Part shown: piece after piece, positions 433 through 61,604 of the stretch
How positions within the stretch are numbered: the stretch's first letter is position 1
How the letters are laid out: each line of letters opens with the position of its first letter
NCBI GenBank assembly: GCA_015231405.1
Contig: JADGBR010000001.1
Coordinates: forward strand, 91,964 to 155,963
Source of the DNA: Candidatus Omnitrophota bacterium
GTDB taxonomy: Bacteria > Omnitrophota > Gorgyraeia > Tantalellales > Tantalellaceae
Direction of reading: 5' to 3'
Length of the DNA: 64,000 bases
Program-made: the position numbers and the translations under genes
The notes under the pieces: generated by a model
Told to the model about the DNA's origin: nothing
The model's database searches: none
What the model saw: only the letters and a program-made list of their open reading frames with translations

Positions 433-540
433 GTGATGGGTTAAGAGTGATGGGTGATGGGCTAAGGTTTTCGCAATACATAAACTCCTCACCCATCACT
501 AATAGTTGACTGAATTGTTATGTCACCCATCACCAATGAG
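433..540. repeat. heptamer-periodic array GTGATGG x3-5, then two reverse-complement CCATCAC copies 20-50 nt downstream
   Basis: 433-467 reads gtgatgg gttaaga gtgatgg gtgatgg gctaagg. CCATCAC occurs at 493-499 and 527-533. Intergenic between acd and etfB. Confidence 0.7.
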
Positions 541-550
541 TGAACTTAAA

Positions 551-1339
551 ATGAACATAATCGTACTTATCAAACAAGTTCCCGAGACTACGGACGTTAA
601 GATCGACCCTGTGACTAATACCCTGAAGCGCGAAGGGGTGCAGTCGATAATTAATCCTTTTGACGTGTATGCCATAGAAGAGGGTATACGGTTAAGGGAA
701 AGAGCCGGCGCGGGAAAGGTGACGGTCATAACTATGGGGCCGCCGCAGGCTTTGGAGGCCCTTAGAGAGGCCGTTTCAATGGGCTGCGATGATGCTATCC
801 TTCTCTCCGACAGGAAATTCGCGGGTAGCGATACATGGGCCACAAGTTACACTCTTTCGAAAGCCATTAAAAAGCTTGGCAAATTCGATGTCATTATTTG
901 CGGAAAACAGGCTTCCGACGGAGATACCGCTCAAGTAGGGCCGGGTGTTTCTACTCATCTGGACATCCCGCAGGTAACTTACGTAAAGAAGATCGAGGAG
1001 ATAACCATAGAAAAAGCCCGCGTCGAAAGGATGACGGAGGAAGGATACGATATAATGGAAACTCCTTTACCGGCGCTTTTTACGGTCGTTAAAGAAATTA
1101 ACGTCCCCAGGCTTCCGTCTTTGAAAGGCAAGATGCGCGCGAAAAAAATAGAGATACCGGTATGGACGGCCGAATCGCTCGAATGCGACGGGAAAAAAAT
1201 TGGGCTGGACGGGTCTCCTACCAGGGTCATGAAAGTATTCACGCCGGCGCCCAGGGAAGGCGGGGAAATGTTATCAGGCGAGCCGGAAGAAGTGGCGAAG
1301 AAACTTGTCGGTTTGCTGAGGGATGCCGTTTTAGGATAA
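551..1339 (+). CDS. etfB: electron transfer flavoprotein beta subunit
   Basis: Starts MNIIVLIKQVPET, typical of the EtfB N-terminus, and matches the family over its length. The 6-frame ORF begins at a TTG at 506; ATG 536 or 551 is more plausible. Confidence 0.85.
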   Translation: MNIIVLIKQVPETTDVKIDPVTNTLKREGVQSIINPFDVYAIEEGIRLRERAGAGKVTVITMGPPQALEALREAVSMGCDDAILLSDRKFAGSDTWATSYTLSKAIKKLGKFDVIICGKQASDGDTAQVGPGVSTHLDIPQVTYVKKIEEITIEKARVERMTEEGYDIMETPLPALFTVVKEINVPRLPSLKGKMRAKKIEIPVWTAESLECDGKKIGLDGSPTRVMKVFTPAPREGGEMLSGEPEEVAKKLVGLLRDAVLG

Positions 1340-1369
1340 CGGATCAAGAGGAAAGTGAAATGTCCGGGA

Positions 1370-2571
1370 AAGAGCCTATACAAGTAATATTGGAAAAATG
1401 CGTAGGGTGCACCCTTTGCGTTAAGGTATGTCCTTTCGCCGCGATAACGATGTCGGGGAAGAAAGCTGCCATAGATCTCAACAAATGCACTCTTTGTGGA
1501 GCATGCCGTGAAGCCTGTAAATTCACCGCCATCGTCATAGAGAAAAAAGAAGAGAAGAAGAACGACCTTTCGGTATATAGGGACGTATGGGTCTTCGCCG
1601 AGCAGAAACAAGGCGTTATTCAATCTATTTCTTTCGAACTTCTGGGGAAAGGAAGAGAATTGGCCGATAAGCTCGGTGTTAATCTTTCAGCGGTGCTTCT
1701 CGGCGACGGGACCGAAAAAGCTGCGCGTGATCTCGTCGAGCGAGGCGCCGATAAAGTTTATGTCGTTGACTCTCCGAAATTAGGCGCGTATCTGGATGAC
1801 CCTTATACGAAAATATTGACGGCGCTCGTGAATAAATATAAACCGGAGGTCGTGCTTTGCGGAGCGACTGTAATTGGCCGGAGCCTTATTTCCAGGGTAG
1901 CTGTCCTTACGAACGCCGGGCTTACGGCGGATTGTACAGGGCTCGATATCGACCAGAAAGAAAGGCTGCTTCTGCAGACCAGACCCGCTTTCGGCGGCAA
2001 TATCATGGCTACCATCATCACGCCGAACACCAGACCCCAGATGGCTACCGTGCGGCACAAGGTCATGACCGAGGCCGTGGCTGTACCCGCGAGGAAAGGG
2101 GAGATAATTAAAGAGACTTTTTCCGACGATATGTATCTCTCGCGGACGAAGCTCATAGACATGGTGCGCGAAATAGAAGAGACTGTGAACCTTGCCGAAG
2201 CGAATATAATCGTTTCAGGCGGACGCGGCCTGGGCGCGAAAGAAAATTTCGACATGATCAGGGAACTCGCATTAACCCTTAACGCGGCCGTAGGGGCCTC
2301 GAGATCTGCGGTTGACGCCGACTGGATACCGTATTCACATCAGGTAGGGCAGACGGGTAAGACAGTTTGTCCGAAACTATATATCGCCTGCGGCATCAGC
2401 GGGCAGATACAACATTTGATAGGTATGAAATCATCGGAAATAATCGTAGCGATAAATAAAGATCCGGAAGCGCCAATTTTTAAAGTGGCGACATACGGCA
2501 TCGTCGGTGATGTTTTCAAGATAGTTCCGAAGCTCACGCAGTATTTCAAAGAGACCCTGCATAAATCGTAG
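1370..2571 (+). CDS. etfA: electron transfer flavoprotein alpha subunit with N-terminal 2x[4Fe-4S] ferredoxin domain
   Basis: ATG at 1370 follows RBS GAGGAAAG, 30 nt after the etfB stop. Two CxxCxxCxxxCP motifs (CVGCTLCVKVCP, CTLCGACREACK) precede an EtfA/FixB fold with an FAD-binding C-terminus. The 6-frame ORF start at 1162 overlaps etfB and is rejected. Confidence 0.85.
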
Positions 2572-2591
2572 AGGCGGGGTTACCCCGCCTC
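2571..2591 (+). terminator. hairpin GAGGCGGGG-tta-CCCCGCCTC after the etfA stop; weak T tract
   Basis: Perfect 9-bp GC-rich stem with a 3-nt loop overlapping the etfA stop. The downstream sequence tacagctgcatttctcc is only modestly T-rich. Confidence 0.35.
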
Positions 2592-2696
2592 TACAGCTGC
2601 ATTTCTCCTAACTCTAGTGTTTTTGCCTTATACCCCATATATTGTATCCAGCTGAATAATTGGCACCAATCAGAGTATACCCACTTGTTGAAAAAC

Positions 2697-59634: not shown

Positions 59635-59671
59635 TGTGTTCCTGGTCGATAAAGGACATACGGAGGTGAAT

Positions 59672-60415
59672 ATGAAAGGACTTATATTAGCCGCTGGATA
59701 CGGGACAAGGCTTTACCCTCTGACCCTGAACCTGCCTAAACCGTTATTGGAAGTCGGCGGTAAGACTATCATGGAAAGACATTTGACCAAGCTTGAAGCG
59801 GTTGGAACCTGCGACGGGGTTTACATCGTCACTAATTCCAAGTTCGCTCACGTCATCTCTTCATGGTCGGAAAAACATAAATTCCGGTTCCCTGTCGAAA
59901 TCGTCGACGATGGAACTATCACGAACGAAGACAGGCTCGGGGCGATAGGCGACATTAGGCTCGTTCTGGATAAGAAAGCCCCTTCATCGGACGTACTCAT
60001 AATGGCAGGGGACAACCTTTTCGAGTTCCCGCTTTCGGGCTTTGTGTCTTTTGCAGGGAAAAAAGGATGCCTTACGGTAGCTCTTTACGACGTCAAGGAA
60101 AGGGAGCTCGCTAAAAAATACGGTATAGTTTCACTGGGCGTTGGAGAGCAGGTCACAGATTTCCAGGAAAAACCTAAGGAACCGGGGTCAACTCTCGCGT
60201 CGACAGGTATTTACTATCTCCCGGAAGCCAAACTTGGCTTTTTAGGGAAATACTTGAGTACCGGGAACTCCAAGGACGCGCCCGGTAATTTTGTGAAATG
60301 GATGTCGGAGAACGATAAGGTTTACGGTTACGTTTTCAGGGAAGGGTGGTATGATATCGGCGATATAGATTCCCTTCATAAAGCCGATCGTGAATACAGG
60401 GAGAAGGGAATATAG
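59672..60415 (+). CDS. sugar-phosphate nucleotidyltransferase (NTP_transferase family)
   Basis: MKGLILAAGYGTRLYPLT...KPLL signature. 247 aa. RBS GGAGGTGA. Confidence 0.8.
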   Translation: MKGLILAAGYGTRLYPLTLNLPKPLLEVGGKTIMERHLTKLEAVGTCDGVYIVTNSKFAHVISSWSEKHKFRFPVEIVDDGTITNEDRLGAIGDIRLVLDKKAPSSDVLIMAGDNLFEFPLSGFVSFAGKKGCLTVALYDVKERELAKKYGIVSLGVGEQVTDFQEKPKEPGSTLASTGIYYLPEAKLGFLGKYLSTGNSKDAPGNFVKWMSENDKVYGYVFREGWYDIGDIDSLHKADREYREKGI

Positions 60416-60437
60416 AAAATAAGAAAAGGAGAGTTTA

Positions 60438-61580
60438 ATGAAAGAGAAGTATTTGTTCACATCAGAAAGTGTCACTGAAGGTCATCCCGATAAAGTATGC
60501 GACCAGATATCCGATTCGATACTGGACGCCATAATCAAGAACGACCCGAGCTGCAGGGTGGCCTGCGAAACGCTCGTTACGACCGGACTGGCCGTCGTCG
60601 CCGGGGAAATAACGACTTCCTGCTATGTTGACATACCCAAGATAGTAAGGAACACTATTAAGGAAATAGGGTATACCGACGCGAAGTACGGGTTCGATTA
60701 CCTGACATGCGGCGTCCTTACTTCCATACAGGAGCAGTCTCCGGATATAGCCATGGGAGTCGATGTCGGCGGGGCCGGAGACCAGGGTATGATGTTCGGG
60801 TACGCTACCAGCGAGACCAAGGAGCTTATGCCGATGCCGATAATACTGGCGCATGGTCTGACAAAGAGGTTATCAAGGGTCAGGAAAGAGAACATCCTTA
60901 AATATCTCAGGCCCGACGGCAAGAGCCAGGTCACGGTCGAATATGTTAACGGCAAGCCTCTAAGGGTCGAAGCCGTGATAGTCAGCGCCCATCATGACAA
61001 AAAAGTCGATATGACCACCATGGCCGGGGATATCAGGAAATATGTCATAAATGAGGTGATACCCGCTGAATTTCTGGACAAGAACACCAAGATATTCATT
61101 AATCCAACCGGCCGCTTCGAGGTCGGAGGGCCTCAGGGCGATTCCGGAGTTACAGGCAGGAAGATCATCGTAGACACATACGGCGGCGTGGGGAGCCACG
61201 GCGGCGGAGCGTTCAGCGGCAAAGACCCGTCGAAAGTTGACAGGTCAGCTTCCTATATGGCCAGGTACGTGGCGAAGAACATAGTAGCTTCAGGTATTGC
61301 CGAAAAATGCGAGATACAGATAGCTTATGCCATCGGCATTGCGGAACCGGTCAGCGTTATGGTCAACACCTTCGGCACGGGTAAAATATCCGAGGATAAG
61401 ATAGGTAAGGCCATAAGGGAGGTTTTCAACCTTACTCCCGCGGGCATAATCGAGCACCTCAAGCTCAGAAGGCCTATATTTAAAAAGACCGCCGCTTATG
61501 GCCACTTCGGAAGGATAGAGGAAGGTTTCACATGGGAAGAGACAGGTAAAGCCGTGGAGTTCAAGAAAAAAGCAAAGTAA
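60438..61580 (+). CDS. metK: S-adenosylmethionine synthase
   Basis: [36 protein letters not shown]. Confidence 0.95.
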
Positions 61581-61583
61581 AAT

Positions 61584-61604
61584 AACCAGAATGGAGAATG
61601 ATAT
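61584..61604. repeat. aaccaga atggaga atgatat, a short copy of the NCCAGAA/TGGAGAA unit
   Basis: The 13-mer CAGAATGGAGAAT is identical to 38128-38140. Between metK and ahcY. Confidence 0.45.

Follow-up and report, generated by a model that had tools for sequence, protein, structure and literature searches.

A 64-kb stretch of one Candidatus Omnitrophota genome (contig JADGBR010000001.1; hereafter the window, which all counts within this genome cover) carries tandem arrays of 7-nt units in the short spacers between its co-directional genes, and most of these arrays are followed by an array of the reverse-complement unit. At least six unrelated unit families coexist in these 64 kb, the G-rich arm comes first in every pair and the elements found at a given junction are absent or different in close relatives. 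On balance, and with moderate confidence, we consider that these elements are palindromic repeats with a fast turnover, resembling bacterial interspersed mosaic elements (BIMEs) or the hairpin-forming doublets (REPINs) of repetitive extragenic palindromic (REP) sequences, that their heptamer arms are prone to slippage and that they are tolerated in transcribed spacers. To judge from sequence comparisons, their role in the his, trp and thr operons is not that of conserved, sequence-specific regulators. No mention of such repeats in Omnitrophota was found in the literature and, as far as it shows, this is their first description in this phylum; the kind itself is already known elsewhere and is not a new type of system.

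Detection and placement of the heptanucleotide arrays

Periodicity was scanned by searching for segments in which positions i and i+p agree in at least 12 of 14 cases, and shuffled versions of the window (first-order Markov) served as control. At a lag of 7, eight segments were observed for a mean of 0.14 in the shuffles. In the same scan of the window, periods 9 and 11 yielded a single segment each, and periods 4, 5, 6, 8, 10, 12 and 13 yielded none. Furthermore, the autocorrelation of the 3877 non-coding bases peaks at lags 7, 14, 21 and 28 (0.330, 0.319, 0.299 and 0.281 for a background of 0.25-0.27), whereas coding sequence only shows the codon period of 3. The initial annotation of this DNA had proposed that arrays with a 7-nt period occupy the spacers and that coding regions contain nothing comparable; both proposals are borne out.

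Tandem Repeats Finder reported arrays of period 7 at 432-461, 13518-13549, 13573-13592, 15712-15735, 17647-17678, 17730-17758, 20295-20324, 26455-26486, 26483-26504, 37938-37952, 38126-38160, 49279-49304 and 49355-49376, and arrays of period 14, 21 or 22 at 47590-47622 (valS/rluB), 39568-39640 (hom/thrC) and 20295-20337 (trpC/trpF). The two-unit site between metK and ahcY is too short to be reported by this program. Reverse-complement partners were recovered by an inverted-repeat search at acd/etfB, hisB/hisH, trpE/trpG, trpC/trpF, rpe/pgm and hom/thrC, and by reading the sequence at gpsA/tRNA-Pro, tRNA-Pro/hom and nadC/uvrB. Hence, nine loci carry paired arrays, with 3-51 nt between the arms, in agreement with the earlier statement that most arrays have such a partner downstream. 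Two arrays are unpaired (hisF/hisI and valS/rluB). These 11 loci are clear, while the twelfth that had been announced (metK/ahcY) is marginal and an additional candidate, located between the tRNA-Lys and tRNA-Gly genes, had been missed. An assembly artefact is ruled out since the same architecture is found in many independent assemblies, in spacers only. The elements are as follows.

433-461, plus strand: acd/etfB 5' arm, GTGATGG-type units, about 4 copies, 2 nt past the acd stop codon
484-535, plus strand: acd/etfB complementary arm, CTCACCCATCAC (484-499) and a second copy GTCACCCATCACCA (522-535); etfB starts at 551
13518-13549, plus strand: hisB/hisH 5' arm, 4.6 copies of (N)ATGGAC, 2 nt past the hisB stop codon
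13573-13592, plus strand: hisB/hisH 3' arm, 2.9 copies of GGTCCAT; hisH starts at 13608
15712-15735, plus strand: hisF/hisI unpaired array, 3.4 copies of GTCCATG, the reverse complement of the hisB/hisH unit
17647-17678, plus strand: trpE/trpG 5' arm, 4.7 GCGCATA-type copies
17730-17758, plus strand: trpE/trpG 3' arm, 4.1 CGCTATG-type copies; trpG starts at 17785
20213-20247, plus strand: trpC/trpF 5' arm, G/T-rich GTTGYCN/CCGGTTN units
20295-20337, plus strand: trpC/trpF 3' arm, 6 copies of CAACNGN, also with a period of 21, ending 1 nt before the trpF ATG
26455-26507, plus strand: rpe/pgm near-perfect hairpin, 3.5 ACGTAAG-type copies, a 3-nt loop and 3.5 copies of ACGTCYT, 92% complementary
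37932-38006, plus strand: gpsA/tRNA-Pro pair, degenerate GTTGTTA-type arm (37932-37958) and C/A-rich partner (37973-38006)
38124-38160, plus strand: tRNA-Pro/hom 5' arm, 5 NCAGAAT/GGAGAAT units
38211-38246, plus strand: tRNA-Pro/hom 3' arm, ATTCTGG-type units; hom starts at 38280
39585-39632, plus strand: hom/thrC 5' arm, GGATCCAGAA-type units with periods of 7, 21 and 22
39665-39687, plus strand: hom/thrC 3' arm, TCCTGGATTCTGGCTTCTGAATT
47568-47622, plus strand: valS/rluB unpaired array, AGAATNN/CCAGAAT with periods of 7 and 14, extending from the stop codon of valS up to the ATG of rluB
49274-49308, plus strand: nadC/uvrB 5' arm, 5 TGCCGGT/TGTCCGT units, directly past the nadC stop codon
49353-49390, plus strand: nadC/uvrB 3' arm, 4-5 copies of CAACRGG
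55481-55562, plus strand: additional candidate between tRNA-Lys and tRNA-Gly, GAGAATAGAGAACGG (55481-55495) and CCGTTCTCTTCTCTC (55548-55562), two units per arm
61585-61604, plus strand: marginal metK/ahcY site, two CCAGAAT/GGAGAAT units within a spacer of 10 nt, running into the ahcY start

The host is related to Candidatus Makaraimicrobium thalassicum and Candidatus Aadella gelida (78% and 77% identity of HisF, respectively). The window contains about 60 genes and three tRNA genes, all on the plus strand and in an order that is kept in other Omnitrophota. These are housekeeping genes, whose names were checked with Pfam and syntenic loci, and no transposase, reverse transcriptase or mobile-element nuclease was found among their products. 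Non-coding DNA makes up only 6% of the window. Among the 24 spacers that reach 40 nt or more, 11 are built largely of heptamer elements. Spacers that look like operon boundaries, with G+C-rich hairpins and promoter-like sequences, lack them.

Six downstream genes had been given wrong, too early starts by naive open reading frame (ORF) calls that cross the arrays. Their true starts lie further downstream (etfB, hisH, trpG and hom as listed above; hisI at 15755 and pgm at 26547), according to N-terminal conservation, Pfam coverage and, for Hom, a database protein that is 100% identical. With these revised starts, all arrays are non-coding, except that the TAA stop codon of rpe lies inside the first rpe/pgm unit, where ACGTAAG comprises the final sense codon of this gene together with its stop. 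Naive ORF calls across such arrays are a practical pitfall for annotation.

The first arm begins 0-5 nt past the upstream stop codon at eight of the ten junctions between protein genes, and the 15-39 nt that follow the second arm hold the Shine-Dalgarno sequence and the start codon, both of which are left intact. At trpF and rluB, by exception, the array abuts the ATG. The first copy of the hom/thrC element overlaps the 3' end of hom (39568-39609). The hisF/hisI array is preceded by a G+C-rich hairpin (15684-15704) and, in place of a full partner array, has a single complementary unit at the hisI start codon (15753-15759). The tRNA-Pro gene that separates two of the elements is embedded between gpsA and hom, an arrangement kept in four other Omnitrophota loci (L161, L162, L163 and L165; numbers preceded by L designate the loci fetched for comparison).

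Within the window, the arms of each family are common to two to four loci. Several properties of the units were considered and abandoned. The initial annotation had remarked that several units contain one 4-bp palindrome; CATG, GCGC, CCGG, ACGT or GATC does occur once per unit in five of about seven families, which is barely above the expectation of about 36%, and this fails as a general feature in other lineages. Nor do the units generally provide a stop codon in all frames, since CATGGAC has none. Phase variation was ruled out because the neighbouring genes are housekeeping biosynthetic genes.

Elements turn over faster than their flanks

The his-trp region was compared with five other Omnitrophota loci of the same gene order. 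Junctions that bear elements in the window are tight or overlapping in these loci. For instance, trpE and trpG, which a 143-nt spacer separates in the window, overlap in L001, L002 and L008; trpC and trpF are 15 nt apart in L001. The elements of the window are thus inserts of 55-170 nt in junctions that are otherwise tight. Arrays are also present in relatives: in Aadella, they sit at trpC/trpF and trpB/trpA (GTTAGGT... and CCTACAA...) and, in Omnitrophica RBG_13_46_9 (L003), at hisF/hisI, at hisI/trpE (eight copies of GGCTGAT) and after trpA. The hisF/hisI spacer of RBG_13_46_9 (10788-11040) is about 290 nt long and contains heptamer pairs of different families, one nested in the other (GTAGGTT ... 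AACCTA on the outside and GAGTTTC ... GAAAC on the inside), as if one element had formed within another. In Makaraimicrobium (L001, 8664-8691), four unpaired copies of TAGTGAA run across the hisB stop codon and the GTG start of hisH, each unit comprising a stop triplet and a potential start triplet.

The closest relative found is a JGI contig (L161) whose Hom is 90% identical. Its hom/thrC spacer is 12 nt long (about 7 nt in L165 and L166) versus 137 nt in the window, and its tRNA-Pro/hom spacer is 50 nt long without arrays versus 171 nt in the window. Its gpsA/tRNA-Pro spacer (613-850) carries a different pair, with a period of 8, consisting of two to three copies of GTGCACGG and their complement. 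The loop of this pair is about 130 nt long and its first half is almost devoid of C. The hom/thrC junction holds an unrelated heptamer pair in L162 (TTCGKGW ... CGAACCC), a three-unit GCTCGAN array in L163 and no array in L165 and L166. Ordinary G+C-rich hairpins are found in neighbouring spacers of L163/L164 and L165/L166. L163 (1115-1160 and 11258-11320, likewise in L164) carries conventional REP-like hairpins, TAGGGGTTTGATAAATCAAACCCCTA and GGGACAGCGACCATTTTT..., located in similar operon junctions in place of heptamer arrays.

Two metagenome strains that are 98% identical (L095 and L141), which are probably Omnitrophota according to their best matches, carry 190-nt elements flanking the trp operon (6085-6280 and 12821-12977 in L095; 7736-7892 and 14455-14603 in L141). 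These elements have GAGAATK arms and a conserved 85-nt core of three small hairpins, and this core is found at several loci and in both orientations. At the orthologous site, the two strains have the core in opposite orientations and differ by one unit in one of the arms; at the second site, a diverged copy whose arm units are different takes the place of the element. Altogether, the sequences compared indicate that the elements are not conserved and that their turnover is far faster than that of their flanks. Such turnover between relatives that are 90% and 98% identical argues for neutral or selfish inserts and not for regulators.

Pairing, arm order and unit families across lineages

The fetched loci and the window together represent 2.4 Mb, in which a partner was sought within 250 nt of each array. 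A metagenome scan with TrpD only gave relatives of at most 51% identity, which were used as a background set. A reverse-complement partner accompanies 28 of the 153 arrays of period 7, for one in the reverse-only control, and 6 of the 135 arrays of period 8; periods 5, 6, 9, 10 and 11 are at the control level. A reverse-complement partner is thus almost specific to period 7 in these 2.4 Mb. Paired heptamer arrays are also carried by unrelated metagenome-assembled genomes, namely a Pseudomonadota (L026, GGCGGAA / TTCCGCC), a Pseudomonadales (L032) and a Thiobacillus (L060).

Furthermore, of 23 curated elements, 22 have a G-C skew that is higher in the 5' arm, including all 10 pairs of the window, the sole exception being a period-8 element of Caenispirillum. 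Since an inverted repeat (X followed by the reverse complement of X) reads alike on both strands, this order is inherent in the element and does not reflect the direction of transcription.

Different Omnitrophota genomes also have unit families in common at non-orthologous sites, three being observed for 0.20 expected (P=0.002). The AGCGCAT family is found in the window and L162, which have 13-mers in common in both arms, the AACCTAC family in L002 and L003, and the ACTATGG family in the window and L018. The L018 array (10404-10426; ATAGTCC ACAGTCC ACAGACC) is located inside hisF, where it forms an in-frame insertion of eight codons relative to HisF of the window; the inserted residues (NSPQSTDH) lie in a surface loop. 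In the window, elements of the same family have unrelated loops, and no conserved core was detected in them when both orientations were compared. These elements show neither the conserved internal sequence nor the target-site duplication that characterize MITEs (miniature inverted-repeat transposable elements).

Comparison with known heptamer and palindromic repeats

Intergenic repeats of 7-nt units have been known from cyanobacteria since 1990, and in 2007 they were reported to be over-represented in many bacteria. The short tandemly repeated repetitive (STRR) sequences STRR1-3 of heterocystous cyanobacteria, described by Mazel et al. in 1990, reportedly have the units CCCCAGT, TTGGTCA and CAACAGT. 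In the window, only the CAACNGN family resembles STRR3. The architecture is that of STRRs, as the initial annotation had recognized: several 7-nt families that can form hairpins are dispersed over many intergenic and intra-operon spacers. The units differ and the host belongs to another phylum, so that these elements are not STRR1-3 of a heterocystous host. REP sequences, BIMEs and REPINs of Proteobacteria are high-copy extragenic palindromes that occur as inverted pairs with variable linkers and form stem-loops in intra-operon mRNAs. Their arms are single imperfect palindromes of 20-40 nt, with a cognate REP-associated tyrosine transposase (RAYT, an IS200-like Y1 transposase). The elements described here resemble them by their strain-to-strain variation and, to judge from the two to four loci per family in the window, perhaps by arms that are conserved while linkers are not. 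They differ from them by arms made of tandem 7-mers, and no RAYT gene was found among the products of the window.

In filamentous cyanobacteria, 7-bp STRR hairpins located between hupS and hupL were proposed to act in transcript stability or translational coupling (PMC2670836). The GGGGAYT repeats of Nostoc are reported to be rarely paired (PMC4692102); heptamer repeats affect reporter expression in this genus by a mechanism that was not found (bioRxiv 10.1101/2022.06.06.494920).

A close counterpart is provided by the GGGAATC arrays of Xanthomonas, which number about 190 per genome, about 70 of these cases being pairs in convergent orientation, with one array on each strand (Rehm et al. 2015, PMC4692102). 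These arrays are mostly located between co-directional ORFs, at 50 bp or less from the upstream stop codon or overlapping it, are mostly transcribed and lie near housekeeping genes; no function was found for them (PMC4692102). Both sets have in common the tandem 7-nt units, the convergent pairs with the G-rich arm first and the co-directional junctions close to the upstream stop codon, and unit number also varies between related species of Xanthomonas (PMC4692102). In the window, 9-10 pairs consist of the same unit on opposite strands, close to each other and with the G-rich arm first, and the arrays lie well within the 50-bp distance at the eight junctions mentioned above. However, Xanthomonas has one dominant unit with a G-tract (GGGNATC, able to form G-quadruplexes, four units being preferred) and 83% of the sites are kept between two species (PMC4692102). 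The window has at least six units without G-tracts (GTGATGG, CATGGAC, GCGCATA, GTTGCCG, ACGTAAG and CCAGAAT do not provide four-fold repeated runs of three G), and its elements are hardly conserved in position, even where proteins are 90% identical.

Geobacter metallireducens carries three classes of paired tandem repeats called "global regulator sites" (Aklujkar et al. 2009, PMC2700814). These have 3-5 units (GTTGCTYN, TCTCCGTS[Y] or MTYCTGA) in pairs on opposite strands at variable distances, are found in spacers of amino-acid biosynthesis genes (next to trpB2 and between proB and proA) and are absent from G. sulfurreducens (PMC2700814). They differ from the elements of the window by periods of 7, 8 and 8-9 and were read as putative IHF/HU sites (PMC2700814). 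In marine Beggiatoaceae, TAACTGA direct repeats are located upstream of start codons (MacGregor 2015, PMC4679880). These intergenic arrays of two to six heptamers abut start codons, a Shine-Dalgarno sequence being often absent, as is the case at trpF and rluB in the window, but they involve one unit in direct repeats and forward orientation, with one inverted case among 170 (PMC4679880). Heptanucleotides are the most abundant long simple-sequence repeats in many prokaryotes according to Mrazek et al. (2007), who proposed, as summarized in PMC4679880, that a polymerase footprint of about 7 nt favours slippage. The eight strict arrays of the window are long simple-sequence repeats in the sense of PMC4679880, i.e. 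7-nt units in excess of composition and in non-coding DNA, since all of them lie in spacers. Huang and Mrazek (2014) do not mention heptamers.

The elements of the window are the same kind of object as STRR hairpins, the convergent pairs of Xanthomonas and the paired sites of G. metallireducens. The restriction to cyanobacteria that the initial annotation implied is therefore contradicted, as heptamer pairs are also known in Xanthomonas (PMC4692102) and G. metallireducens (PMC2700814). It had also named a match to a repeat family of assigned function as evidence that would speak against it; none was found, because none of the known families has an assigned function. The resemblance of some units to TAACTGA, MTYCTGA, CAACAGT and GTTGC-like units was discarded as a relationship: it is within chance once rotations and strands are counted, as we estimate that about 0.9 of 7 families would lie within one mismatch of a published unit.

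Origin and possible roles of the elements

According to the explanation that we favour, the elements would originate, or be inserted, within the short non-coding stretch that separates a stop codon from the ribosome-binding site of the following gene. As 94% of the window is coding, only inserts located in spacers would survive. Their arms would lengthen and shorten by replication slippage, hence the 7-nt period, and the complementary arm would result from inverted duplication or template switching, unless the whole pair was copied between sites. Inside operons, only inserts that fold promptly would be tolerated. The G-rich-first order could be due to the fact that it keeps the C-rich arm from being exposed as a single strand to Rho or nucleases, which is the hypothesis that we prefer. 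Transcribed elements would fold into long stem-loops within the polycistronic mRNA. Acting as a barrier to 3' exonucleases or as an RNase III substrate would then be an incidental by-product, as for REP sequences and BIMEs.

Several arrays show signs of local seeding, namely the rpe stop codon inside the first unit, the duplication of the hom 3' end (the row of period 22) and the TAGTGAA array across hisB/hisH in L001, which fit growth by slippage. On the other hand, the unit families common to several sites and the elements of L095 and L141 suggest copying between sites. Both processes probably operate.

Some points weigh against this explanation. Transcription through the elements and their folding in vivo are assumptions. 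Since neither a mobilizing enzyme, nor a target-site duplication, nor a conserved internal sequence was found for the elements of the window, copying between sites is deduced only from shared unit families, and one of the three families relies on an array inside a coding region (hisF of L018). Moreover, slippage alone explains neither the preference for 7 nt nor the G-first rule. Lastly, the evidence comes from 64 kb of one genome, and both tests of selected pairing presented below (wobble pairs and covariation) have a low power.

The elements could instead be selected cis-acting RNA stem-loops that set the expression of neighbouring cistrons in his, trp and thr mRNAs, as RNase III sites, barriers to 3' exonucleases or devices of translational coupling. 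We regard this as rather unlikely. The long imperfect stems announced in the initial annotation can indeed be predicted: arms could pair over about 20-30 bp, the predicted RNA folds of the spacers reach -24 to -55 kcal/mol, and fold z-scores range from -5.0 to -5.9 for acd/etfB, hisB/hisH, trpE/trpG and rpe/pgm, being weaker for degenerate elements. Furthermore, the elements are confined to operon-internal spacers and avoid those bearing promoters or terminators, similar roles were proposed for the hupS/hupL hairpins (PMC2670836) and ordinary hairpins are found at the same junctions in other Omnitrophota. The total minimum free energy also hinted at a better folding of the sense strand (-399 kcal/mol versus -356 for the antisense strand, with 46 and 26 G:U pairs, respectively). 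However, this hint was not upheld when the mismatches between arms were scored in their best register and irrespective of the strand: 24 are G:T and 18 are A:C (p=0.44), with 62 others. The lack of a G:T excess over A:C does not point to the sense transcript as the form under selection. Likewise, no register-specific covariation was detected, as shuffling the 7-nt blocks of the second arm leaves complementarity unchanged; the arms are thus complementary by unit consensus and not position by position. The idea that variant units are mirrored between arms, either by palindromic origin or by compensatory maintenance, was withdrawn for the same reason.

Searches against Rfam also failed to reveal an RNA family. 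At the gathering threshold, the Rfam 15 covariance models only retrieved tRNAs in the window; at E<=0.1, the only other match was RF04354 (E=0.014), on the tRNA-Lys gene and not on an array, and arrays of five related loci gave no match. Leader-peptide attenuators, T-boxes and riboswitches were rejected, since the elements lie between internal genes and not ahead of first genes, and given the Rfam result. The elements are not conserved at orthologous junctions, even at 90% Hom identity. The proposal of a conserved RNase III, stability or regulatory device thus did not withstand the comparison with this relative and with other Omnitrophota, which lack the elements at the same junctions, nor the wobble and covariation counts.

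The elements could also be strict non-autonomous mobile elements of the MITE or REPIN type, the arrays being terminal inverted repeats on which a transposase or a RAYT-like enzyme from another part of the genome would act. This would account for the 85-nt core flanked by arrays at several loci and in both orientations in L095 and L141, for the unit families common to genomes at non-orthologous sites and for a presence/absence pattern that resembles clean insertion. In the window, by contrast, members of a family share arms and not loops, no target-site duplication was seen, no transposase is encoded and some arrays look seeded from the local stop-codon sequence. Moreover, at least six families would require several enzymes or one that reads the structure. 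Taken together, these data make this explanation unlikely.

A role as phased binding arrays for a DNA- or RNA-binding protein (a global regulator, an IHF/HU-type protein, S1, Csp or CsrA), of the kind put forward for Geobacter and Beggiatoa, appears improbable. The exact 7-nt phasing and the unit families common to genomes would agree with it, as would the occurrence of similar units in distant lineages (ATTCTGA-like units versus MTYCTGA of G. metallireducens, CAACTGA-like units versus TAACTGA of Beggiatoaceae), but the latter likeness is within chance and orthologous positions are not conserved. Furthermore, at least six unrelated units in 64 kb are too many for one sequence-specific protein, which makes the single DNA-binding protein suggested in the initial annotation unlikely.

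Hairpin-type terminators or attenuators inside gene strings are very improbable: although U-less termination may be normal in this host, whose operon-end hairpins lack U-tracts, and although the rpe/pgm stem was flagged as terminator-like (with a hisB/hisH sub-hairpin, the only such flags among the elements), terminator-like sites are not enriched at elements (18 for 15.1 expected and 11 for 16.6 expected), most elements lack the U-tract that follows the G+C-rich stem of intrinsic terminators, the promoter scan of the window revealed no enrichment of promoter-like sites at elements and none downstream to restart essential biosynthetic genes, and the compared his/trp junctions are tight or overlapping in several relatives.

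A broader and rather doubtful idea is that paired heptamer arrays constitute one class of self-propagating palindromic element, present across phyla and endowed with a dedicated mechanism. The link between period 7 and the presence of a partner, the G-first order in Omnitrophota, several Proteobacteria and Xanthomonas, and the unit families common to genomes would in that case be signatures of this mechanism and not of chance slippage. Candidate mechanisms would be the addition of G-rich repeats at both 3' ends of a break, a mobilizing enzyme reading the structure, or a strict selection for operon inserts that are Rho-proof. The window is an unusually dense example, with multiple families, in a streamlined genome that has little non-coding DNA. 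Pairing specific to period 7 and the G-first rule, both found across phyla, offer concrete handles on this kind of repeat.

Other features of the window

Compact G+C-rich hairpins without U-tract are located at apparent operon ends (around 2572-2591, 15684-15704, 36839-36863, 52509-52531 and 56265-56290), which suggests that the termination signals of this host lack U-tracts. A region of 904 nt (33470-34373), upstream of a gene encoding an HTH_3 regulator (34374-34742), has no convincing ORF; it includes a long inverted repeat with 41-nt arms that are 83% complementary (34102-34142 and 34221-34261) and without Rfam match. Lastly, the 298 nt between a CofD-family gene and the gene of enzyme I (EI) of the phosphotransferase system (PTS) (57549-57846) contain an apparent gene for a small HPr-like protein, which was missed by the ORF cut-off of 100 amino acids and is flanked by PTS EIIA and EI genes.

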